Shown piece after piece: positions 5,003 through 52,786 of a DNA stretch of 64,000 nucleotides. How positions within the stretch are numbered: position 1 is the first letter of the stretch; each line of letters begins with the position of its first letter. Source of the stretch: Coprobacillus sp. CAG:605 (GTDB lineage: Bacteria; Bacillota_I; Bacilli_A; RF39; UBA660); the NCBI GenBank assembly GCA_000433255.1, contig HF998230.1, forward strand, positions 9,589 through 73,588, read 5' to 3'. Below the pieces are notes generated by a model. The model had not been told where the DNA came from. It saw only the letters and a program-made list of their open reading frames with translations, and made no database searches. Made by a program: the position numbers and the translations under genes.

Positions 5003-5518
5003 ATGAAATATAAACAAAAAGTTGACGTTGTAATTGAATCATTATTAATCTTACTAGGAGTAGTTCTTCTCTTATTACCAATACTAGGTTTTTACAATAT
5101 AAAACATATCTTCTTTATCGTCATGATAATCTATGGTTTCTTAAACCTGGCCCAATTTCTTTTAACACTAAAATCTAAAGACTACGAAGGCCTATATACT
5201 TTCATTGTCTGCCTTGCCTTTGCTATAGTAGGTATTTCTTTTGATTTTAGTAATCCTATCCAACTATCTTTATCTTTAGTTGCCTGGACTTTCCTAATGT
5301 GTATAATCAAACTTGTTAAAGCCAGTTACTATAACGACCTTAGAGATAGAATGTACAAATTACGTTTATTTACCTTATTTATCTTTATGGTTTTAGGTGT
5401 TTTATGTAGTATTAATATCTATCAATCACCAGATGTTCAAGTATTAATATTAGGATTTTTCTTCTTTAGTCATGGTATCCTAGAAACCATTGACCCAATT
5501 GTCAAATATTTAATATAG
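5003..5518 (+). CDS. small polytopic membrane protein, function unknown
   Basis: Five to six hydrophobic segments. GGAGGTG RBS precedes the ATG at 5003; the listed TTG at 4988 lies in the RBS. Confidence 0.55.
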   Translation: MKYKQKVDVVIESLLILLGVVLLLLPILGFYNIKHIFFIVMIIYGFLNLAQFLLTLKSKDYEGLYTFIVCLAFAIVGISFDFSNPIQLSLSLVAWTFLMCIIKLVKASYYNDLRDRMYKLRLFTLFIFMVLGVLCSINIYQSPDVQVLILGFFFFSHGILETIDPIVKYLI

Positions 5519-5530
5519 GGGAGAGTAGTT

Positions 5531-6400
5531 ATGAAATTAGTTAATGATTTTAAAGAATATCAAATTTTAGATATGAATAATGGTTATAAAACGGAAGAAT
5601 GGAATGGTTATACTCTAACTCGTCCCGACCCTCAAATTATCTGGCCTGGTAATAGCCAAAATATCAAAGTAGACGCTAAATACTACCGCAGTAACTCTGG
5701 TGGTGGCTCATGGCAAATTCTAAACAACAAATTACCTAACTCCTGGCCAATTCACTACCATGATTTAACTTTTAACCTAAAATTAATGGGCTTTAAACAC
5801 ACCGGCCTTTTCCCTGAACAAGCCTATAATTGGAATTTAATTATGGAAAAAGTGAAAAATGCTAATCGAGAGGTTAAAGTTTTAAACCTTTTTGCCTATA
5901 CTGGTGCGGCTTCTGTCGCTGCCCTAAAAGCTGGGGCCTCTGTCGTTCATGTTGATTCTTCTAGAGGTATGGTTGACTGGGCTAAAGAAAACGTTGCGTC
6001 TTCTAATTTAAGCGACAAACCTATAAGATTTATAGTCGACGACTGTCTAAAATTCGTTAAAAGAGAAATTAGACGTGGTAACAAATACGATATAATCTTA
6101 ATGGACCCACCTTCATTCGGTAGGGGTAGTAGTAAAGAAGTTTGGAGTATCGAAAAAGACTTATATAACTTAGTTGATTTATGTAGCCAAATTTTAAGCG
6201 ACGATGCAATAATGTTCTTAATAAATTCATATACTACCGGACTATCTAAAAGTGTTTTAGAAAATATTTTAAAAATTTGTGTTAATTCGAAACATCAAGG
6301 TTTCATTTCTTCCGATGAACTAGGCCTTCCTATGAAAAACAGTGACTTAGTTTTGCCATGTGGTATCTATGCTAGATGGGAAAAAGAAAAGACCTTATAA
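5531..6400 (+). CDS. class I SAM-dependent methyltransferase (RlmI/RlmK-like catalytic domain)
   Basis: SAM-binding VLNLFAYTGAASVAAL and catalytic-type DPPSFGRG motifs. Confidence 0.8.
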   Translation: MKLVNDFKEYQILDMNNGYKTEEWNGYTLTRPDPQIIWPGNSQNIKVDAKYYRSNSGGGSWQILNNKLPNSWPIHYHDLTFNLKLMGFKHTGLFPEQAYNWNLIMEKVKNANREVKVLNLFAYTGAASVAALKAGASVVHVDSSRGMVDWAKENVASSNLSDKPIRFIVDDCLKFVKREIRRGNKYDIILMDPPSFGRGSSKEVWSIEKDLYNLVDLCSQILSDDAIMFLINSYTTGLSKSVLENILKICVNSKHQGFISSDELGLPMKNSDLVLPCGIYARWEKEKTL

Positions 6401-30156: not shown

Positions 30157-33100
30157 ATGAAGAAAAATGGTTATACATTAGTCGAATTAATTATTACAAT
30201 GGCATTACTTGCTCTAGCATCAACAGTTATCATTGTTAATATGCAAGGTGTAGAATCTAAACAAAATAAATCCTTGAAAGAACGTCGTATTGCTGAAATT
30301 GAAAAAGCCGCCTGCTCGGCCATTGATTCTCTCCAAGCCGAAATAATAACTGGTCAAAACCGGGATAATTGTCTTGCCAATGGCTGCAAGATAAAATTAT
30401 CTAAATTAGTTAGTGAAGGTATCATTGATGAAGATTTAGACTTTGACTCTGATGGTACAAAAATAGTTGATATTAAAGATCTTTATTCAGTTGGTATTAA
30501 ATGGGATACCACAAGTGATGGTTATAAAGAAAAAAAATGTGAATTTGAACTTCGTGATCTTGATACTGATCCAATTGATCCCAATCCAACGCCTGATCCC
30601 AATCCTGACCCTGGCCCAACGCCGGATCCTAATCCTGACCCTGACCCTAATCCTGACCCAACACCAGAACCAGATCCTGTTTCTTCTAGTTTTGGTTATA
30701 CCGGTTCAGTTCAAAAATATATTGTTCCCAAAACAGGTGTTTATAAACTTGAAACTTGGGGTGCTCAAGGTGGATCAACATCAGGATGTATAGGAGGATA
30801 TGGGGCTTATAGTACGGGCGAAATAACTTTGAAAAAAGATGATGTAATTTACATTACTGTTGGTGGGTCTGGATTAGGCTACACAACTCATCGCCCTTTA
30901 TCTGGAGGTTATAATGGTGGCGGTGGTTCTAGTCCGACAAGTGACACTAATGAAATAACTGCCTCTGGTGGTGGAGCTACTCACATTTCCAAAACTAATA
31001 AGGGCACTTTATCAAATTATTCTAGTAATGATGAGATTTATATCGTTTCTGCTGGTGGTGGCGGTGCTGCTGCGAATAAAGCCATAATGTGTGTTAATGG
31101 TGGTGCTGGTGGTGGAATATCTGGCAATAATGGTGGACGTTATGAAGAAAACACTACCGATGCTAGAATTAGCGCTATTGGATATGGTGGCACCCAAAAT
31201 CGAGGTGGCTCATATTTCAATCAAACAACAAGTGGTAGTGGTGGTATTGCATCTGGAGTATTTGGCTCTGGGGCTAGTGGAAATTATACTGGCGCTGGTG
31301 GCGGCTACTATGGTGGTGGCGTCAGCCATTGTTCCGCCGGCGGTGGCTCAAGTTATATAGGAAATTCGGACTTATCCAATAAAGCCATGTACTGCTATAA
31401 TTGCGCTACTTCAAATGCCGCAAATACCAAAACAATAAGTGTAACATGTCATAGTGATACAGCAACATCAAACTGTGCTAAAGAAGGCACAGGATATGCT
31501 AAAATATCATATGTTAAAGCTTCTACTGAAGATCAAGAAATTTCTAATCCAAGTCCTGCTAAATTTGACTATACAGGTTCAGTTCAAGAATACACAGTTA
31601 TCAAAACTGGCAAATATAAACTTCAAGTTTGGGGAGCCCAAGGTGGTAGTGACAGTCCAAGCGATGGTGGTGTGGGTGGTTATTCGGAAGGCAAAATTGA
31701 ATTAACCAAAGGCAGCAAATTGTATATTGCTGTCGGTGGCCAAGGCTCACCATACACTAGAAAAGCCAAAAGCAATGGTGGCTTTAATGGTGGTGGATAT
31801 GGTGGCATCGTTAATGCCTCATCAAATCCTCAAGGAGGCTCTGGCGGTGGTGGAGCAACCCATATTGCATTAACTAACCAAACTCTTAACAATTTACAAG
31901 ACAAAAAAAGTGATATTTTAGTTGTCGCTGGCGGTGGCGGTGGCGGTGCTATGGTCCCTGGTGGAGCTGGTGGCGGAATATCAGGAAATAATGGAAATTA
32001 TGCCGACGATTATCCAACATATTTTGGTAGTGGTGGAACCCAAACTAGTGGTGGATATGATAACTACTTAAAAGATAACAAAGCCATCTTTGGCAAAGGT
32101 TCCGATCTTAACGAAGTAGGATATGGTGGCAATGGTGGCGGTGGTGGCTACTATGGCGGTGGCGGTACCAATCGTGCTCACAGTGGTGGTGGCGGTGGTT
32201 CTGGCTACATAGGAAACCCTAAATTGACTAACAAAATGATGTCATGCTTTAATTGCCAAGAATCTTCATCGGTTGATACGAAAACAATATCAACGACTTG
32301 CAAAAACTCATCACCCCTTGATAATTGTGCTAAAGTTGGTAATGGTTATGCCATAATATCTTATATAGATGGCACAAATACTGAAAAAACTACTGAGAGT
32401 TTTCAAACTAAGACTTATGACTTTACTGGTACGGAACAAACATTAAAGATTCCTGCCACTGGAACTTATAAACTAGAAATATGGGGAGCCCAAGGTGGTA
32501 ATTCATATGATGGAGTAGGTGGCTACGGCGGTTATTCTGTTGGAACTGTAACTTTAACTAAAGATAGTACACTATATATTCATGTTGGTGGTTCTGGATA
32601 TGATAGTAATTCTCCAGGCTATAATGGTGGCAAAGCCGATAATAACGCCACTAGTTATAATAGTGGTGGTGGCGCTACTCATATTGCCCTAACTAACCAA
32701 ACCCTTAACAATTTACAATATAAAAAGAGTGAAATATTAATTGTCGCCGGTGGTGGCGGCGCTGGAGAACGTGTTTATGGTGGCTCTGGCGGTGGCTATA
32801 TTGGGGCTGCTGGTTATACAATTGGCACTAATACTTATCCTTATTATGGGACAGGAGGAAGCCAAGCCCGAGGTGGAAATGGCTCTGTCATGTCATCTCA
32901 TGCTTCATCAGGGGTAATCAATGGTTCATTTGGCTTAGGCGGTTCTGGTTATAGTAGTACCGATACTGGAGCTTATGGCGGCGGTGGCTTCTTTGGTGGC
33001 GGTGGTACAACATATGCTGGAGGCGCCGGTGGTGGTTCTGGATATATTGGAAATTTGCTTCTAAAAAATAAAGCTATGTATTGCTATAACTGTGCTACAT

Positions 33101-33210
33101 CCAATGCCGCAGCCACAAAAACTATAAGTGTAACATGCCATAGTGCTAGTGCAACATCAAATTGCGCTAAGGAAGGCAATGGCTATGTAAGAATAACTAA
33201 AGTCTCATAA
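30157..33210 (+). CDS. prepilin-type N-terminus protein with small Cys-containing head, Pro-rich linker and three tandem glycine-rich modules (1017 aa)
   Basis: MKKNG/YTLVELIITMALLALASTVI fits the type IV pilin cleavage/methylation motif (G-[FY]-T-L-x-E plus 14 hydrophobic residues). Three ~270-aa repeats start F(G/D)YTG..Q.Y.V..TG.YKL..WGAQGG and end (M)YCYNCA..TKTISVTC..NCAKEGNGY. Confidence 0.85.
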   Translation: MKKNGYTLVELIITMALLALASTVIIVNMQGVESKQNKSLKERRIAEIEKAACSAIDSLQAEIITGQNRDNCLANGCKIKLSKLVSEGIIDEDLDFDSDGTKIVDIKDLYSVGIKWDTTSDGYKEKKCEFELRDLDTDPIDPNPTPDPNPDPGPTPDPNPDPDPNPDPTPEPDPVSSSFGYTGSVQKYIVPKTGVYKLETWGAQGGSTSGCIGGYGAYSTGEITLKKDDVIYITVGGSGLGYTTHRPLSGGYNGGGGSSPTSDTNEITASGGGATHISKTNKGTLSNYSSNDEIYIVSAGGGGAAANKAIMCVNGGAGGGISGNNGGRYEENTTDARISAIGYGGTQNRGGSYFNQTTSGSGGIASGVFGSGASGNYTGAGGGYYGGGVSHCSAGGGSSYIGNSDLSNKAMYCYNCATSNAANTKTISVTCHSDTATSNCAKEGTGYAKISYVKASTEDQEISNPSPAKFDYTGSVQEYTVIKTGKYKLQVWGAQGGSDSPSDGGVGGYSEGKIELTKGSKLYIAVGGQGSPYTRKAKSNGGFNGGGYGGIVNASSNPQGGSGGGGATHIALTNQTLNNLQDKKSDILVVAGGGGGGAMVPGGAGGGISGNNGNYADDYPTYFGSGGTQTSGGYDNYLKDNKAIFGKGSDLNEVGYGGNGGGGGYYGGGGTNRAHSGGGGGSGYIGNPKLTNKMMSCFNCQESSSVDTKTISTTCKNSSPLDNCAKVGNGYAIISYIDGTNTEKTTESFQTKTYDFTGTEQTLKIPATGTYKLEIWGAQGGNSYDGVGGYGGYSVGTVTLTKDSTLYIHVGGSGYDSNSPGYNGGKADNNATSYNSGGGATHIALTNQTLNNLQYKKSEILIVAGGGGAGERVYGGSGGGYIGAAGYTIGTNTYPYYGTGGSQARGGNGSVMSSHASSGVINGSFGLGGSGYSSTDTGAYGGGGFFGGGGTTYAGGAGGGSGYIGNLLLKNKAMYCYNCATSNAAATKTISVTCHSASATSNCAKEGNGYVRITKVS
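30565..30681 (+). repeat. Pro/Asp/Asn-rich linker encoded by degenerate CCn-GAY/AAY repeats (DPIDPNPTPDPNPDPGPTPDPNPDPDPNPDPTPEPDP)
   Basis: Read directly. Locally GC-rich, short-period repeat. Confidence 0.9.
30688..31515 (+). repeat. glycine-rich module 1 (aa ~178-453)
   Basis: Its 3' end (31381-31500) is near-identical at DNA level to the module 3 end (33068-33190). Confidence 0.85.
31561..32370 (+). repeat. glycine-rich module 2 (aa ~469-738)
   Basis: The central segment GGGATHIALTNQTLNNLQDKKSDILVVAGGGGG is shared nearly verbatim with module 3, including at DNA level (~31855-31940 vs ~32674-32760). Confidence 0.85.
32413..33207 (+). repeat. glycine-rich module 3 (aa ~753-1017)
   Basis: Starts YDFTGTEQTLKIPATGTYKLEIWGAQGG and ends MYCYNCATSNAAATKTISVTCHSASATSNCAKEGNGYVRITKVS. 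Confidence 0.85.
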
Positions 33211-46568: not shown

Positions 46569-47705
46569 TAAAATAACATAGGCGTATAGCCAAATAGTTA
46601 TGAAGTAGGATGGTATTATATGAATAAAAAATTAAAAATAGCCTTAGCATCTGTTGGAGTTTTATTAACCATTTGTATTTGTATAGGAATAAGTTATGCA
46701 TATTGGTTGACAGCAAAAACACAAACTGATGCCAACGTTGCTAAGGCTAACTGCTTTGATACTGTGTTTATCGAAAACAGTAGTGCAATTAACCTGGAAA
46801 AACAATTTCCTATAACGGATGAACAGGGAGAAGCACTAAAACCCTATTCATTCACAATTAAGAATACTTGTACATATTCTGCTAATTATCAAATTAATTT
46901 AGAGACATTAGCAAGTACCTTAAAATTAAAAAATCTTCGTGTTAAAATAGGCACTAAAGCTTCTAACCTTTTATCAAATTATCCAGATGCTAGTGCATCT
47001 AAAGTTATAAGTACTGCTACTGATGCTAGAAGATTAACAGTGGGTACTCTTGATACAGGAGATTCAATGACCTACGAATTAAGAGTATGGTTAGATAAAG
47101 ATACAACATTAGATGATATCAATAATACAGTTGGTGCAGATAATAGTTGGCAAGGAAAGATAACTGTTACAACAACCCTTGCTACAGATATAACCAACTT
47201 TGATGATGGTGTTATAGCGTCATACCCTAAATTATATCAAGGTTTAATTCCCGTTCGTTATGATGACTCGGGAAATGCCGTAGTAGCATCTTCTACTGAA
47301 GAATGGTTCAATTATGGTAAACATAAATGGGCTAATGCTGTTTTAGTAGATTGCAGTGACAATACAATAAAAAATAAATACTTTAATAGTGATATGCAAC
47401 TACGTGAAGACGCTGTAGGCAAGACTATTTCTATGGATGAAATATTACAGATGTATGTTTGGATACCAAGATACAGATATAAATTATTTAATGCCGCAAA
47501 TGGTACAGTAAATGAACAAGCTGTTCAAATAGAATTTGAAAAAGCTAGTGCTGATAAATCAACTGGTACTAAAAATGGCGAATGGCTAACTCATCCCGCA
47601 TTTACATTTGGCAATACGGAATTACCTGGTTTCTGGGCTGCTAAGTTTGAAGCCTCAGGCTCAACTGATAATTATCAAATTAAACCAAATCAAAAGTCCA
47701 CAGCA

Positions 47706-47887
47706 GTTGATGGTCAACCTCAATGGGGTCCTTCAATTACTGGGTGTGCCGGAGCATCTACAAGTGCTGGTGTATCAAGTTCTCAAACTGCTTGTGCCTC
47801 AGGTTATGATTGGACAGCTAAAGGTGTAAATGCTTCAACTACCGGTAACCAATATGGAATATATGATATGTCCGGTGGTGCTTGGGA
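47706..47887 (+). repeat. 182-bp direct repeat, copy 1 (encodes VDGQPQWGPSITGCAG..YGIYDMSGGAW)
   Basis: Aligns without gaps to 48103-48284. Most mismatches are at third codon positions. The offset of 397 nt puts the copies in different frames. Confidence 0.9.
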
Positions 47888-48102
47888 TTAGTGCCGCAAA
47901 AAGTATCACTTTGAATTCTACTAAATACGGGCTAAATAGTGGCGCAGTTGATTCTCATATGATGAAAAATACGGAGTGGGGTGCTATTGCCTTCCTAACA
48001 AACTCAATTTATGGACGTTATAATGATTCCTCAACTTGTATTGCATCTGGCTGTGAAGTATGGATAAATAATATAAATACTGGTTATGGTAATGGTACTG
48101 AG

Positions 48103-48284
48103 GTTGATGGTCAACCACAGTGGGGTCCATCAATAACAGGCTGTGCAGGATCATCAACCAGTGCTGGTGTTTCAAATTCTCAAACGGCATGTGCTTCTGG
48201 ATATGACTGGAAAACTAAGGGTGTTAATGCCTCAACTACAGGAAATCAATATGGAATATATGATATGTCCGGTGGTGCTTGGGA
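48103..48284 (+). repeat. 182-bp direct repeat, copy 2
   Basis: See copy 1. This copy sits in its expected place within the FGE-like domain. Confidence 0.9.
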
Positions 48285-48715
48285 ATATGTAATGGGTGTA
48301 CAAAAAGATTCTAATGGCAATGTCCAAGTTGGCTCGTCTGGCTTTAGTACTTCAAGTCTTCCTGATAGTAAGTACTATGACTTATATGATTACCAAGCAG
48401 AAGATGGAGTAGGTTATACTAGATATCATCTAGGAGATGCTACTAGAGAAGTTTTAAAGAATACTTCTAGTCAAGGAGGAAATGCTTGGTGGAGTGATTA
48501 TTCTTATAACATATTCAGCTCTGAGCCTTGGGTTATTCGTGGTGGCAATTACAACGACGGCTCCCGTGCAGGCGTGTTTGCCTTCAACCATTATAACGCA
48601 GGAGGTTGGACGATTTATTCGTTCCGCTCCGTGCTTTCTGCCGGGTAGTTGCGAAGCAACACACAATTTATAAGTTCAATAATATAACAAAACATATAAA
48701 AATATAATGAAAGTT

Positions 48716-48744
48716 AGCTATTAGTTCACACTAATAGCTTTTTG
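48716..48744 (+). terminator. rho-independent terminator after the FGE-like gene
   Basis: AGCTATTAG-TTCACA-CTAATAGCT plus TTTTT. Confidence 0.75.
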
Positions 48745-48803: not shown

Positions 48804-49037
48804 ATGAAGTTGAGTTTAAAAAACAAATTGTGGTGGGCTCAAAATAAAGATAGAATAACAAGAATAGGTATAATATCTATAACAGCACTTATCTTAGTAG
48901 TGTCTGCAATGTATTTTACATATTCAAAATTTACTGCTAAAAATGAAGCAACAGCATATGAAACAACAGTAGAAAAATTCACCAAAAAGGCTCTGTCCCA
49001 CAACTTTTGGGACAGAACCTTAATAGCAAAGAATTAA
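48804..49037 (+). pseudogene. N-terminal fragment of a second TasA-like/SipW-signal protein
   Basis: MKLSLKNKLWWAQNKDRITRIGIISITALILVVSAMYFTYSKFTAKNEA parallels the 46620 N-terminus (..CIGISYAYWLTAKTQ). Similarity is lost after about 62 aa, at a hairpin CTGTCCC-N9-GGGACAG. Confidence 0.55.
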
Positions 49038-49237
49038 GGAACATGATTTTAGCATTTATCAAAGATTCATCTAATGGAAGAACAAGACAGGAAATTAATA
49101 ATTATATTTATCCAAAAATGGATGGCGACATGATATTCAAAAATAATAAAACAAGAACATCATTAACATATTTAAGAAAAAAAGGATTAATTAAAAATAA
49201 AAATACATATAAAAAACCAGTTTGGTTTGTTAAATAA
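49007..49237 (+). pseudogene. orphan C-terminal winged-helix fragment
   Basis: LNSKELRNMILAFIKDSSNGRTRQEINNYI..TSLTYLRKKGLIKNKNTYKKPVWFVK looks like the wHTH tail of larger ATP-binding/Schlafen-type proteins. It has no N-terminal part and no RBS. Confidence 0.4.
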
Positions 49238-49250
49238 AATTATGCACAGT

Positions 49251-49288
49251 TCTGCAGAAAAATGCAAACCTCTGCGTAATTCTGCAGA
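49251..49288. repeat. 38-nt unit TCTGCAGA-N22-TCTGCAGA, copy A
   Basis: tctgcagaaaaatgcaaacctctGCGTaattctgcaga, with both ends the 8-bp palindrome TCTGCAGA. Confidence 0.9.
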
Positions 49289-49426
49289 AGAAAATGAAAT
49301 TCCTTTCCAAAAAGTATGAAAATAAGAAAGTGAAACCAAGCATAATCTAAAAAATGCCCCGAATATACGGCAAATTTTCACTTTTGATTTAATATTTAAA
49401 GCAAGCTTATTAGGTCATTACAAATC

Positions 49427-49464
49427 TCTGCAGAAAAATGCAAACCTCTTCACAATTCTGCAGA
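49427..49464. repeat. 38-nt unit TCTGCAGA-N22-TCTGCAGA, copy B
   Basis: tctgcagaaaaatgcaaacctctTCACaattctgcaga, 35/38 identical to copy A and 176 nt downstream of it. Confidence 0.9.
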
Positions 49465-49592
49465 CAAAAGTAAACTAGCGATAGATAAAGTAATTGAATA
49501 AATAAAAAACAGCCAAAATAGTACTTGCCTTATAATTGCTGAAATTAAAAAATAACAATGAAGTAATTCATTTATGTTAAAATGAAATAGTC

Positions 49593-49832
49593 ATGAAAAT
49601 GGCTGGGACTAGAACTGTAATATTTATTCCCGCAGTGACGAAAAGCTCTAACCCTTGGATGGTACGTGGTGGCGCTAATTGGGACGTCTCGCAAGCAGGG
49701 GTGTTCTACTTTTGGCGCTACACTGGTAGTGGAAACATTGAAAGATCGTTCCGCTCCGTGCTTTCTCGGCTAAACTATGGATTAAAGATAGTAAAAAAAT
49801 ATTTTTTTTTAAACACAAATAGAGGTTATTGA
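49593..49832 (+). pseudogene. orphan 3' fragment of an FGE/C-type-lectin-fold gene
   Basis: ..SSNPWMVRGGANWDVSQAGVFYFWRYTGSGNIERSFRSVLS aligns codon for codon with 48517-48648. A 21-nt identical block tcgttccgctccgtgctttct is present (49746-49766 vs 48619-48639). No upstream domain is present. Confidence 0.6.
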
Positions 49833-50044
49833 CTAAATATTTATATCTTAATTCATTGAAGTTCAGTTCCAATCTACAACAGTAGGTTAAAATTAATAAG
49901 AAGATTCTTAACTAGTAAATCAGTGAATTTTAAGCATCTTCCAAGTATTTGGAGTATCCAAAAGATACTCTCTTACTCGTAAAAATAAATATACAAAAAG
50001 CCTTAAATATGCTATAGTATACGTTAAAAGAAAGCGGGATAGTT

Positions 50045-51144: not shown

Positions 51145-51783
51145 ATGCAATATATAAAAATTAAAAACGCTAGTAACATCATTACTAAATCACCATACTT
51201 AGTAACTAACCCTGAAGAAAACAAAAATAAATGGTCTAAAGTATTTAACAACAATAAACCTATCTGTATCGAAATTGGCATGGGTAGGGGAGACTTCATA
51301 ATCGGTATGGCTAAAAAATACCCTAACATTAACTTTATCGGTATCGAAATAAACGAATCTCAAATGGTTAACGCCGTTAAATTACTTGAAGGTCAAAAAC
51401 TTCCTAACTTAAAACTAATCTGCATGGATGCCACTAACTTAGCTGATGTCTTTGGTAAAGAAATAGATACTATCTATCTAACATTCCCTGAACCATGGCC
51501 TAAGAAGAAAGACATCCGTCGTCGTCTAACGCATGAAGTTTATCTAAGAATCTATGACCGAATATTCAAGAAAAATAAACACATTATCTTAAAAACGGAC
51601 AATAAAGGATACTTTGCTCATTCCTTAGAATACCTATCTCAATACTGGTATTCCTTCGAACGCGTAAGCCTTGATTTACATCATGATGAAGATCCAATTG
51701 AAAACGTTTTAACTAACTATGAAAAACAATATATCAAAGAAAATCGACCTATTTATTATGTTGATGCAAGATTTGATAATTAA
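51145..51783 (+). CDS. trmB: tRNA (guanine46-N7)-methyltransferase
   Basis: EIGMGRGDFIIGMAKKYPNINFIGIEI and LTFPEPWPKKKDIRRRL. Confidence 0.9.
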   Translation: MQYIKIKNASNIITKSPYLVTNPEENKNKWSKVFNNNKPICIEIGMGRGDFIIGMAKKYPNINFIGIEINESQMVNAVKLLEGQKLPNLKLICMDATNLADVFGKEIDTIYLTFPEPWPKKKDIRRRLTHEVYLRIYDRIFKKNKHIILKTDNKGYFAHSLEYLSQYWYSFERVSLDLHHDEDPIENVLTNYEKQYIKENRPIYYVDARFDN

Positions 51784-51845
51784 GCCATACTTCGACAAAG
51801 AATGACACCCCAGTAGTGTTATTCTTTTTTTGGAGATGAATTTAT

Positions 51846-52226
51846 ATGAAAAAAACGTTATTTTTTATTTTAAGCTTACTATGCAACATTAACCTTGTAA
51901 GTGCTAAAGAAAAGGGTAAACTTGATATCTACTATATAGATACTTTTGGTGATTTTCTAAGTGAAAAAGTTACTATCGAAGATGAAATAGGAGCCTCTTT
52001 TAACATAAGCCCTATAGAAATAGAAGGGTACTCTCTAGTCCGCGTTGACGGCACTGAATCGGGTACTTTCCAAGAAAATCCGCAAGAACTATACTACATG
52101 TATGATTTAAATGAATATCTTCAAGCAGACAATGTCCTAACCGGTATTGAAAAATTTCCTGACCTTAATCTTTACACCTTAGGTTTCCTAGTACTCATAT
52201 TAATTATTCTAAGGACTATCTTATGA
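51846..52226 (+). CDS. small secreted MucBP-domain protein with C-terminal anchor/sorting-like signal
   Basis: Signal peptide (..NLVSA). MucBP pattern GKLDIYYIDTFGDFL..IEGYSLV..GTF..PQELYYMY. Then NVLTG (52131-52145), a hydrophobic stretch and RTIL. Confidence 0.65.
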   Translation: MKKTLFFILSLLCNINLVSAKEKGKLDIYYIDTFGDFLSEKVTIEDEIGASFNISPIEIEGYSLVRVDGTESGTFQENPQELYYMYDLNEYLQADNVLTGIEKFPDLNLYTLGFLVLILIILRTIL

Positions 52227-52786
52227 AAAAGAAAATAACTATCTTACTAATTCTTCTTGATATAATTCTTATTTTAATTAATGTTGTTAGTATAGGTATA
52301 AGCTACCAAGACAATAAAAAATATCTTTCTAGTATCGAAGTGGTTTATGATAATAACTTAAATAGTGCTAATTATAAACCTAATGATATCGTTGGAACCA
52401 TATCTCTTTCTAAAAGTTATTACTTAGTTCAAGGTCATGATAACATCTTCTATCAAAACCATGGCCCTAATAAAGAAGAAAACAATTATGGTTCCATTTT
52501 TGTTGACTATCGCTGTAACTTGTTAGAAGATGGTGCTTGTTATATCTATTCCCATAGTTCTAACTCCTATGACTTACCCTTTAACGAACTCTTAAAGTAC
52601 CAAGATATTAATTACTTTAATAACCATAAATACATCAAGATATCATATTTTAATCATGAACTTTTATACGAAGTAGTGGCTATAACTTCAAACTATGAAG
52701 ACTACCAAGGACCATATTTATACCTTCAAACTTGTAAACTAGATAAAACTGGACTGATTATTTTAGTCCTAAAAAGACTTAAGTAA
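52223..52786 (+). CDS. sortase-family transpeptidase (class B-like, divergent)
   Basis: N-terminal TM, DIVGTISLS.., His region CYIYSHSS, Cys motif LYLQTC (TLxTC-like) and a downstream Arg (LKRLK). ATGA overlap with the preceding gene. Confidence 0.65.
   Translation: MKKKITILLILLDIILILINVVSIGISYQDNKKYLSSIEVVYDNNLNSANYKPNDIVGTISLSKSYYLVQGHDNIFYQNHGPNKEENNYGSIFVDYRCNLLEDGACYIYSHSSNSYDLPFNELLKYQDINYFNNHKYIKISYFNHELLYEVVAITSNYEDYQGPYLYLQTCKLDKTGLIILVLKRLK

Follow-up and report, generated by a model that had tools for sequence, protein, structure and literature searches.

The window, by which we mean the whole 64-kb stretch of Coprobacillus sp. CAG:605 DNA analyzed here, carries on its forward strand a gene (46620–48648) whose product is a surface protein anchored in the membrane by its N-terminus and ending in a C-type-lectin domain of the FGE type. 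Here the gene is read as two ORFs: one (46620–47891, forward) terminates in a TAG, after which the frame changes, and the other (47830–48648, forward) ends in the segment that had been flagged in the initial annotation. Seven conspecific assemblies (L030–L036) have a single intact ORF of 621 aa in its place, and the window matches this intact orthologue at 100% identity over residues 1–360 and at 95.6% over residues 373–621. The interruption is the work of a 248-nt patch (47699–47946, forward strand), which takes the place of 85 nt present in the intact gene (a net gain of 163 nt), includes a diverged, ~85%-identical duplicate of 48103–48287 in direct repeat, and introduces both the TAG at 47889–47891 and a frameshift. 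This patch is unique to the window and missing from all seven conspecific assemblies; up to 47698 the window is indistinguishable from L035 (100% identity), and alignment with L035 resumes at 47947, at 98.2%. The patch could reflect a genuine lesion or an artefact of assembly.

The patch sits exactly where identity to L031-type strains falls from 99.3–99.7% to 90–95%, and it may thus represent either the point where paralogues recombined or an assembly error. From about 47947 on, the window resembles a paralogous locus of a sister lineage (L021) at 90% identity, against only 75% for the 5′ two-thirds of the gene. For this reason the gene resembles a hybrid derived from two paralogous target loci rather than the product of a simple deletion. 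Further target-gene paralogues (L001 9577–11224 and L004 8641–10529) likewise yield two ORF calls each, the split or frameshift lying close to where the FGE-like domain begins.

For the C-terminal domain, the Pfam FGE-sulfatase family (PF03781) was hit below its gathering cut-off (22.2 and 20.3 bits against 23.3) over ~45 residues only, a precomputed FGE-sulfatase domain is present in one homologue (P0043), and a sequence-profile search of the PDB gave no match. An AF2 model of an intact, 80%-identical homologue (P0005), used in place of the window protein itself and built from a 71-sequence alignment, reached a pLDDT of 93.5. Its best matches among solved structures are TaqVP (5vf4; E=1.2e-9), formylglycine-generating enzymes and TvpA of T. 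denticola (2y3c), and its viral structural matches are phage tail-fibre and SUMF-like proteins. Two of these, TaqVP and TvpA, are variable proteins of diversity-generating retroelements (DGRs). The model places the flagged segment at the C-terminus of a variable protein of C-type-lectin/FGE fold, as expected of the target of a DGR.

The adenine-poor 3′ end of the gene

The stretch homologous to template repeats, hereafter the variable region (VR), spans 48516–48643 on the forward strand, where it is 93.8–94.5% identical over 128 nt to a template unit, unit b, of the conspecific L031 and L034. It comprises the last 41 codons and the first bases of a 3-codon tail that precedes the stop. The initial annotation had noted an abrupt change of composition here, which measurement bears out: its estimate of roughly 55% G+C and 18% A against about 30% G+C for the window compares with 55.0% G+C and 17.1% A at 48538–48648 against 30.2% G+C and 37.5% A overall. 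An adenine content of 16.8% or less occurs in only 0.11% of 125-nt segments across all 64 kb, and other places equally A-poor and GC-rich lie only inside a glycine-rich repeat gene at 31–33 kb. That gene (30157–33210), the window's only other strongly A-poor, GC-rich region, encodes a protein of 1017 aa in which a prepilin-type methylation motif at the N-terminus is combined with three glycine-rich domains of the ALK/LTK type (Pfam E=5e-107). Counted from CGT GGT GGC onward, the adenines of the flagged segment fall in 14 codons, as had been claimed; from 48517 to the stop, 18 of the 44 codons contain A.

The 3′ boundary of the VR is marked by two elements. The A-free run said to end the segment is present, at 29 nt (48618–48646, forward) instead of the 28 given, and forms a GC-rich, IMH-like block that contains the 21-mer TCGTTCCGCTCCGTGCTTTCT. 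This 21-mer occurs just twice in the window, in the VR and in a template-type unit downstream, and is exact in both as well as in nearly all templates and VRs recovered; it is invariant in 22 units and in VRs from several species. Immediately 3′ of it VRs and units part ways, the former running into GCCGGG-TAG and a hairpin, the latter into their tail. The hairpin (GTTGC-GAA-GCAAC, 48648–48660, forward) is located as reported, beginning on the G of the TAG stop codon, and is found behind VRs and absent from template units. It is thermodynamically weak alone (−4 kcal/mol, z = −1.4). Every base of it is nevertheless retained behind VRs from different genes and species, namely in L001, L021, L031–L034, L040, L053 and L056, even as its flanks diverge. 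A GC-rich IMH-like 3′ boundary followed by a VR-only hairpin is the arrangement known from DGRs, and a corresponding function is predicted here. A stronger, terminator-like hairpin with a T-run lies 3′ of the target gene (48716–48739, forward; −7.8 kcal/mol, z = −4.6) and also turned up in a sequence scan.

Gut Bacilli and Coprobacillus-like genomes supply hundreds of homologues of the C-terminal domain. Those 73–89% identical are nearly invariant up to ...AWWSDYSYNIYS, beyond which variation is confined to discrete positions, the x of the tail pattern PWVxRGGxxxxGxxAGVFxFxRxxxGGxxxxSFRSVLTA. Some paralogues (P0007) have VR-like tails written in ordinary AT-rich codons, as expected of decayed ex-targets. 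In the contexts of the homologues P0009 and P0007 no RT was found within 10 kb.

Ten conspecific loci were located through the adjacent U32 peptidase, the protein being 100% identical, and the upstream 4.7 kb of L030–L036 are 99.3–100% identical to the window. Among conspecific strains, whose template units are identical, the same gene carries six different VRs. Variation had been predicted to be confined to particular codons, and these loci are hypervariable exactly there. The C-terminal third of the gene outside the VR is also 5–9% divergent among conspecific strains, so that some of the VRs may have been transferred by exchange between paralogous target genes. The only other assembly that shares the VR of the window is L035, which is almost the same strain, so that its identical VR is uninformative on activity. 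Between these two, 78 of 91 differences fall at 51500–52700, a local hot spot unrelated to the DGR; most of the differences there lie in a small MucBP-domain gene (51846–52226) and a sortase-like gene (52223–52786).

Template units and retroelement genes

According to the initial annotation, the window held no template repeat. This is correct for a cognate template, yet a copy of the module is present at 49644–49766, within a complete template-type unit (about 49573–49930, forward). This unit, a non-cognate "satellite" TR RNA gene, was delimited by end-to-end alignment with 21 units that adjoin bAvd and RT genes elsewhere, and it lies 1.1 kb downstream. Along the forward strand follow an extended −10 box (TG at 49575–49576, TAAAAT at 49578–49583), a 5′ hairpin (49590–49603), a leader strand (49604–49616), the TR module (49644–49766, found by repeat search and in the same register as the VR), a tail strand that pairs with the leader (49860–49871) and a terminal hairpin (49873–49886). 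All features of the family are intact, and folding of the single sequence gives the same stems. The unit is poor in AAY codons, with 3 against 5–11 in array units. Its module is positionally equivalent to a satellite unit of L021 (7615–7737, reverse strand), both being AAY-poor, and no adenine-only relation of either satellite to any other unit was found.

The interval between gene and unit has an organization of its own. Two small ORFs, one membrane-anchored (48804–49037) and one basic, of 76 aa (49007–49237), belong to no Pfam or NCBIfam family, with a weak sub-threshold match to Sigma_reg_N for the former. Between these ORFs and the unit lie two 75-nt direct repeats (49251–49325 and 49427–49501, in the region 49236–49501), each with two TTCTGCAGAA-type palindromes, which look like operator sites.

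What such a unit consists of is best seen across the clade. In 22 distinct units aligned over ~360 nt, an invariant T.TG.TA...T box (an extended −10) is followed by a 5′ hairpin, the leader UGGGACUAGAACU, the 123-nt module and a tail of ~160 nt. In the RNAalifold consensus, the module is enclosed by pairing of the leader with AGUUCAGUUCCA of the tail, and a tail helix and the terminal hairpin are predicted as well. Covariation supports this fold: there are 14 compensatory pairs against 6.5 ± 1.3 in shuffles, none of 500 shuffles scoring as high, and only 1–4 in slid registers. Most units are without an ORF, and an Rfam search of the L040 array returned no matching family. The putative promoter is called from the invariant box across the 22 units; it is without a −35 element, and a simple sigma-70 scan missed it. 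We infer that the units are transcribed separately, as structured RNAs of ~330 nt. Transcription of TRs as discrete small RNAs has a precedent in Trichodesmium (PMC6596454).

Downstream of the orthologous gene, sister lineages carry 2 to at least 13 tandem units, then bAvd, an RT and a MutS-like factor. Arrays were sought on contigs with a gapped pattern whose anchors were the two A-free flanks; this search identified 8 tandem units in L014 and 2 in L021, both in one Firmicutes MAG, and 4 in L017, from a Hadza-gut MAG. No match to this pattern was found in the viral contigs scanned; single matches in GC-rich Actinomycetota, Verrucomicrobiota and others are likely due to chance or unrelated. 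The L014 array leads directly into bAvd, RT and a MutS-domain-I protein. Its bAvd, at L014:3601–3957, matches PF22296 (E=2.7e-19) and NCBIfam DivGenRetAVD (E=2.8e-20; 72.6 bits, against a cut-off of 80), its RT, at L014:3933–4946, matches RVT_1 (E=7e-15) with the motifs IGNYTSQ and FMDD, and the MutS-like protein after the RT consists of 113 aa of MutS domain I. Genes for bAvd and RVT_1 likewise directly follow the arrays of L040 and L056. The fullest arrangement is that of L040, where a single 117-kb contig carries the U32 peptidase, a 622-aa target, at least 13 units, bAvd, RT, Msl and rimP-nusA-infB; two ORFs (5096–6034 and 6046–6357; 312 and 103 aa) without a Pfam match sit in the middle of this array and are conserved in L053. 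The most compact is L056, with target, two units, bAvd and RT, unit b lying beside Avd/RT. For the more distant RT loci P0123 and P0125, the contigs extend too little upstream for arrays to be visible.

In L031–L034 and L053, units a, b and c directly follow the VR. The close relative L053 is collinear with L040 save for a clean deletion, at ~3373 on its reverse strand, of L040 6358–10988, a segment holding eight units, Avd and RT. It retains the target gene, three units, Msl and rimP-nusA-infB, and its VR derives from a u10-type unit, a type that lies inside the deleted segment. Loss of the core that leaves a fossil VR behind thus does occur in this clade.

The library of units also differs between strains. 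The cores of positionally equivalent units are either conserved, as for L031_a and L040_u1 (core 93%, leader/tail flanks about 90%), or swapped, as for L031_c and L040_u5 (core 52%, flanks 71–90%) and for the window unit and its L021 counterpart (core 52%, flanks 86–88%). Unit order and number depend on the strain, running a-b-c, u10-b (L057), c-b or to at least 13 units. Mosaic units were also observed, for instance an a/b hybrid in L055 (L055:1119) and unit b of L031 relative to unit 3 of L040. The simplest reading of these alignments is that the units would be remodelled by recombination through their shared flanks.

Origin and present state of the variable region

Which template wrote a given VR can be read from the substitutions that separate the two. 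The VR of L040 differs from the first unit (u1) of its own array by 18 changes at adenines and none elsewhere (binomial P=5e-12), those of L034 and L053 from a u10-type unit by 12 and 9 changes at adenines and, again, none elsewhere, and that of L032 from a b-type unit by 13 changes at adenines and 2 at other bases. Codon positions 1 and 2 hold 33 of 36 substitutions. Across strains, the orthologous VR has accordingly been derived from at least three template types, namely u1/a, b and u10. Adenine-biased pairs of VR and template, together with identical units beside differing VRs, are the signature of a DGR.

The VR of the window is explained by unit b of L032 (unit-b module GGCAATTACAACAACGGCTCCAATGCAGGCGTGTTTGCCTTCAACCGTAATAAC...). 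Over 123 nt there are 7 mismatches, all within 48556–48616 on the forward strand by base-by-base comparison, of which 6 fall at template adenines (binomial P=5e-4), so that 6 of the 26 unit-b adenines have been changed. The adenine-site changes are AAC>GAC at 48556, AAT>CGT at 48565–48566, AAT>TAT at 48592, AAT>ATT at 48614 and AAT>TAT at 48616; the sole change at another base is CGT>CAT (G>A) at 48590. This pairing rests on seven differences, one of them non-adenine, and on a template from the assemblies of other strains, since the window holds no cognate one. On this combined evidence we regard 48516–48643, with little reservation, as the variable region of a DGR target gene. A purely compositional or structural account, in which the A-poor tail is dictated by the FGE fold or arrived as a patch by horizontal transfer and no DGR is involved, can point to RGG...SFRSV as a feature of the fold and to P0007-type paralogues, which keep the peptide motif in AT-rich codons. 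The same paralogues show that the fold does not need A-free codons, and the A-free scaffold is found together with the boundary block, the hairpin and template relations specific to adenine; we consider such an account barely credible.

The obvious local candidate for a template is the module at 49644–49766. It shares with the VR its length, its register, CCTTGG..CGTGGTGGC at the 5′ end and TCGTTCCGCTCCGTGCTTTCT at the 3′ end, and it belongs to a bona fide template-type unit. Of 125 positions compared, 48 nevertheless differ between the two cores; only 15 of these carry A in the downstream copy and 13 in the VR, and the differences include synonymous third positions throughout, whereas unit b accounts for the VR with one non-adenine change. 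Given mismatches without adenine bias, neither copy templates the other; this spectrum refutes 49644–49766 as the template of this VR, leaving the idea a negligible probability. Nor was a VR derivable from the window's own unit found among 26 module-bearing homologues.

Gene conversion of the RecA type from silent cassettes, as in pilS or vls and with no reverse transcription, deserves consideration where tandem promoter-proximal cassettes share common flanks and mosaic units exist (the L055 a/b hybrid; L031_b against L040_u3). When the first 14 units recovered (L014, L017 and L021) were tried as templates for three VRs, no clean pair emerged. Conversion was dropped once conspecific and same-contig units gave adenine-only relations. 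The differences between donor and VR are adenine-specific (18/18, 12/12, 9/9 and 6/7), bAvd and RT abut the arrays, and the units possess a covarying RNA structure and a promoter box, all of which make faithful conversion a very improbable source of the VRs. Recombination probably shuffles the templates themselves, yet it does not explain the VRs.

A reverse-transcriptive route is what we propose instead, its biochemical steps being modelled on Bordetella phage BPP-1. In this clade, the TRs would be short, separately promoted, structured noncoding RNAs of ~330 nt, with the 123-nt module held within a leader/tail stem. A DGR RT, acting with bAvd and the MutS-like factor, would copy the template into cDNA while misincorporating opposite adenines, and the mutagenized cDNA would replace the VR, the 3′ boundary of which is putatively marked by the A-free GC-rich block and the stop-codon hairpin. 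The VR of the window would have been written from a template of the unit b type located outside these 64 kb.

How the present locus stands in relation to such a system is a matter of finer balance. The reported lack of an RT in the window holds up: no plausible ORF contains a YxDD motif, and a related DGR RT used as tblastn query gave nothing, as did Avd, the MutS-like factor and neighbouring genes of the nusA region across the 64 kb. A cognate TR is likewise absent from the 64 kb, where the only other copy of the module is non-cognate. In both the window and L035, the array position is occupied by the two small ORFs, the palindromic repeats and the single satellite unit. The initial annotation had proposed a DGR target VR whose RT/TR cassette lies elsewhere or has been lost; the VR and the missing RT and cognate template stand, but a template-type unit is present, the system has an array of many template units rather than a cassette with one TR, and the gene is broken.

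Is the VR then a remnant, or is it still served from a distance? RT, Avd and a b-type template may reside elsewhere in the genome, for instance as the reciprocal outcome of the recombination between paralogues from which the hybrid locus arose, and DGRs do act on remote targets (PMC5758913). Compatible with continuing activity are the intact A-free scaffold, boundary block and hairpin of the VR, the resemblance of the locus to a hybrid of paralogous loci rather than a simple deletion, the satellite unit that has kept its promoter box and all stems, and L035, where the same arrangement accompanies an intact gene. Against it, the gene of the window is interrupted, no RT occurs across 64 kb, the array that other conspecific strains have behind the gene is absent from this locus, and L053 provides a documented case of core loss. 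Service by a remote core is a serious contender, to which we give somewhat less than an even chance. Weighing the broken gene, the missing array and the core loss on record in the clade, we are slightly more inclined to see the window copy as an inactive fossil than as a remote target that is still active; loss, at any rate, has a direct precedent in the RT deletion of L053.

Taken with the arrays of its relatives, the locus suggests a broader reading, which we marginally favour: a multi-template DGR in which one set of RT, Avd and Msl serves up to at least 13 promoted, structured templates, any of which can rewrite the same VR, with the window preserving one target and a stray member of the library. 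The templates of the arrays have their homing ends in common and differ at non-adenine positions, so that the reachable sequence space would extend beyond the adenines of one template, and recombination would remodel the library. DGRs are usually described as one template serving one or several targets, with diversity limited to the adenines of that template. Were all units active, the accessible repertoire would grow combinatorially, and the arrays would amount to a natural form of template multiplexing, relevant to the engineering of DGRs for directed evolution; the compact, conserved RNA that flanks the TR would then also be useful for studying how an RT recognizes its template. Natural knock-outs such as the RT deletion of L053 and the rearranged locus of the window could serve to gauge the rate at which orphan VRs decay.

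Comparison with known systems

The mechanistic prototype is BPP-1 (mtd VR, TR, avd, brt), for which the roles of the IMH, the hairpin and the structured RNA flanking the TR are known. The present system resembles it in adenine-specific substitutions that fall mostly at positions 1 and 2 of AAY codons, in an A-free GC-rich 3′ boundary common to TR and VR, in a short hairpin 3′ of the VR only, and in the pairing of Avd with RT, here found in relatives. It differs in the number and place of its templates: BPP-1 has one TR between avd and brt, whereas 2 to at least 13 units lie upstream of avd here, each with its own promoter box and leader/tail structure. BPP-1 is moreover phage-borne and diversifies a protein of the Mtd type, while the element described here is chromosomal and its target is of FGE-type fold.

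In fold and in placement of the VR at the C-terminus, the closest counterparts are TvpA of Treponema denticola and TaqVP of Thermus aquaticus, with which sequence identity is only 10–15% and whose elements have a single TR each. Considered by itself, the VR of the window is an ordinary, well-documented case, as VRs separated from or bereft of their element are known from Treponema. Isolates of T. denticola without RT and TR keep targets whose VR differences fall mostly at adenine sites, leftovers of DGR loss (PMC4891356), and these match the state proposed for the window and seen in L053. An RT followed by a MutS-domain-I protein is shared, as is residence in the human gut, with DGRs of Bacteroides, for which the Msl accessory factor has been described (bioRxiv 10.1101/2024.11.15.621889). 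Those elements belong to another phylum, the present one being from Bacillota, and target type V pilus subunits; here, the targets are different and the templates lie in arrays.

Surveys give one TR per element (PMC5758913, PMC8144416). More than one TR per RT is on record for Stenotrophomonas sp. SKA14 (PMC6642488) and for 53 DGRs from MAGs (PMC11661182); such reports count two TRs or merely flag the case, and some instances were manually checked and removed from analysis (PMC11661182). In the open-access papers and preprints searched, neither long tandem TR arrays nor structured TR RNAs with promoters of their own were described, nor was a case in which one VR is written from alternative TRs in different strains. 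A library of non-expressed donors with common flanks that feeds one expressed site has its nearest likeness in Neisseria pilE/pilS and Borrelia vlsE. These are systems of silent-cassette antigenic variation, and the likeness is one of analogy only: recombination there is faithful, whereas the process here is adenine-mutagenic and linked to an RT.
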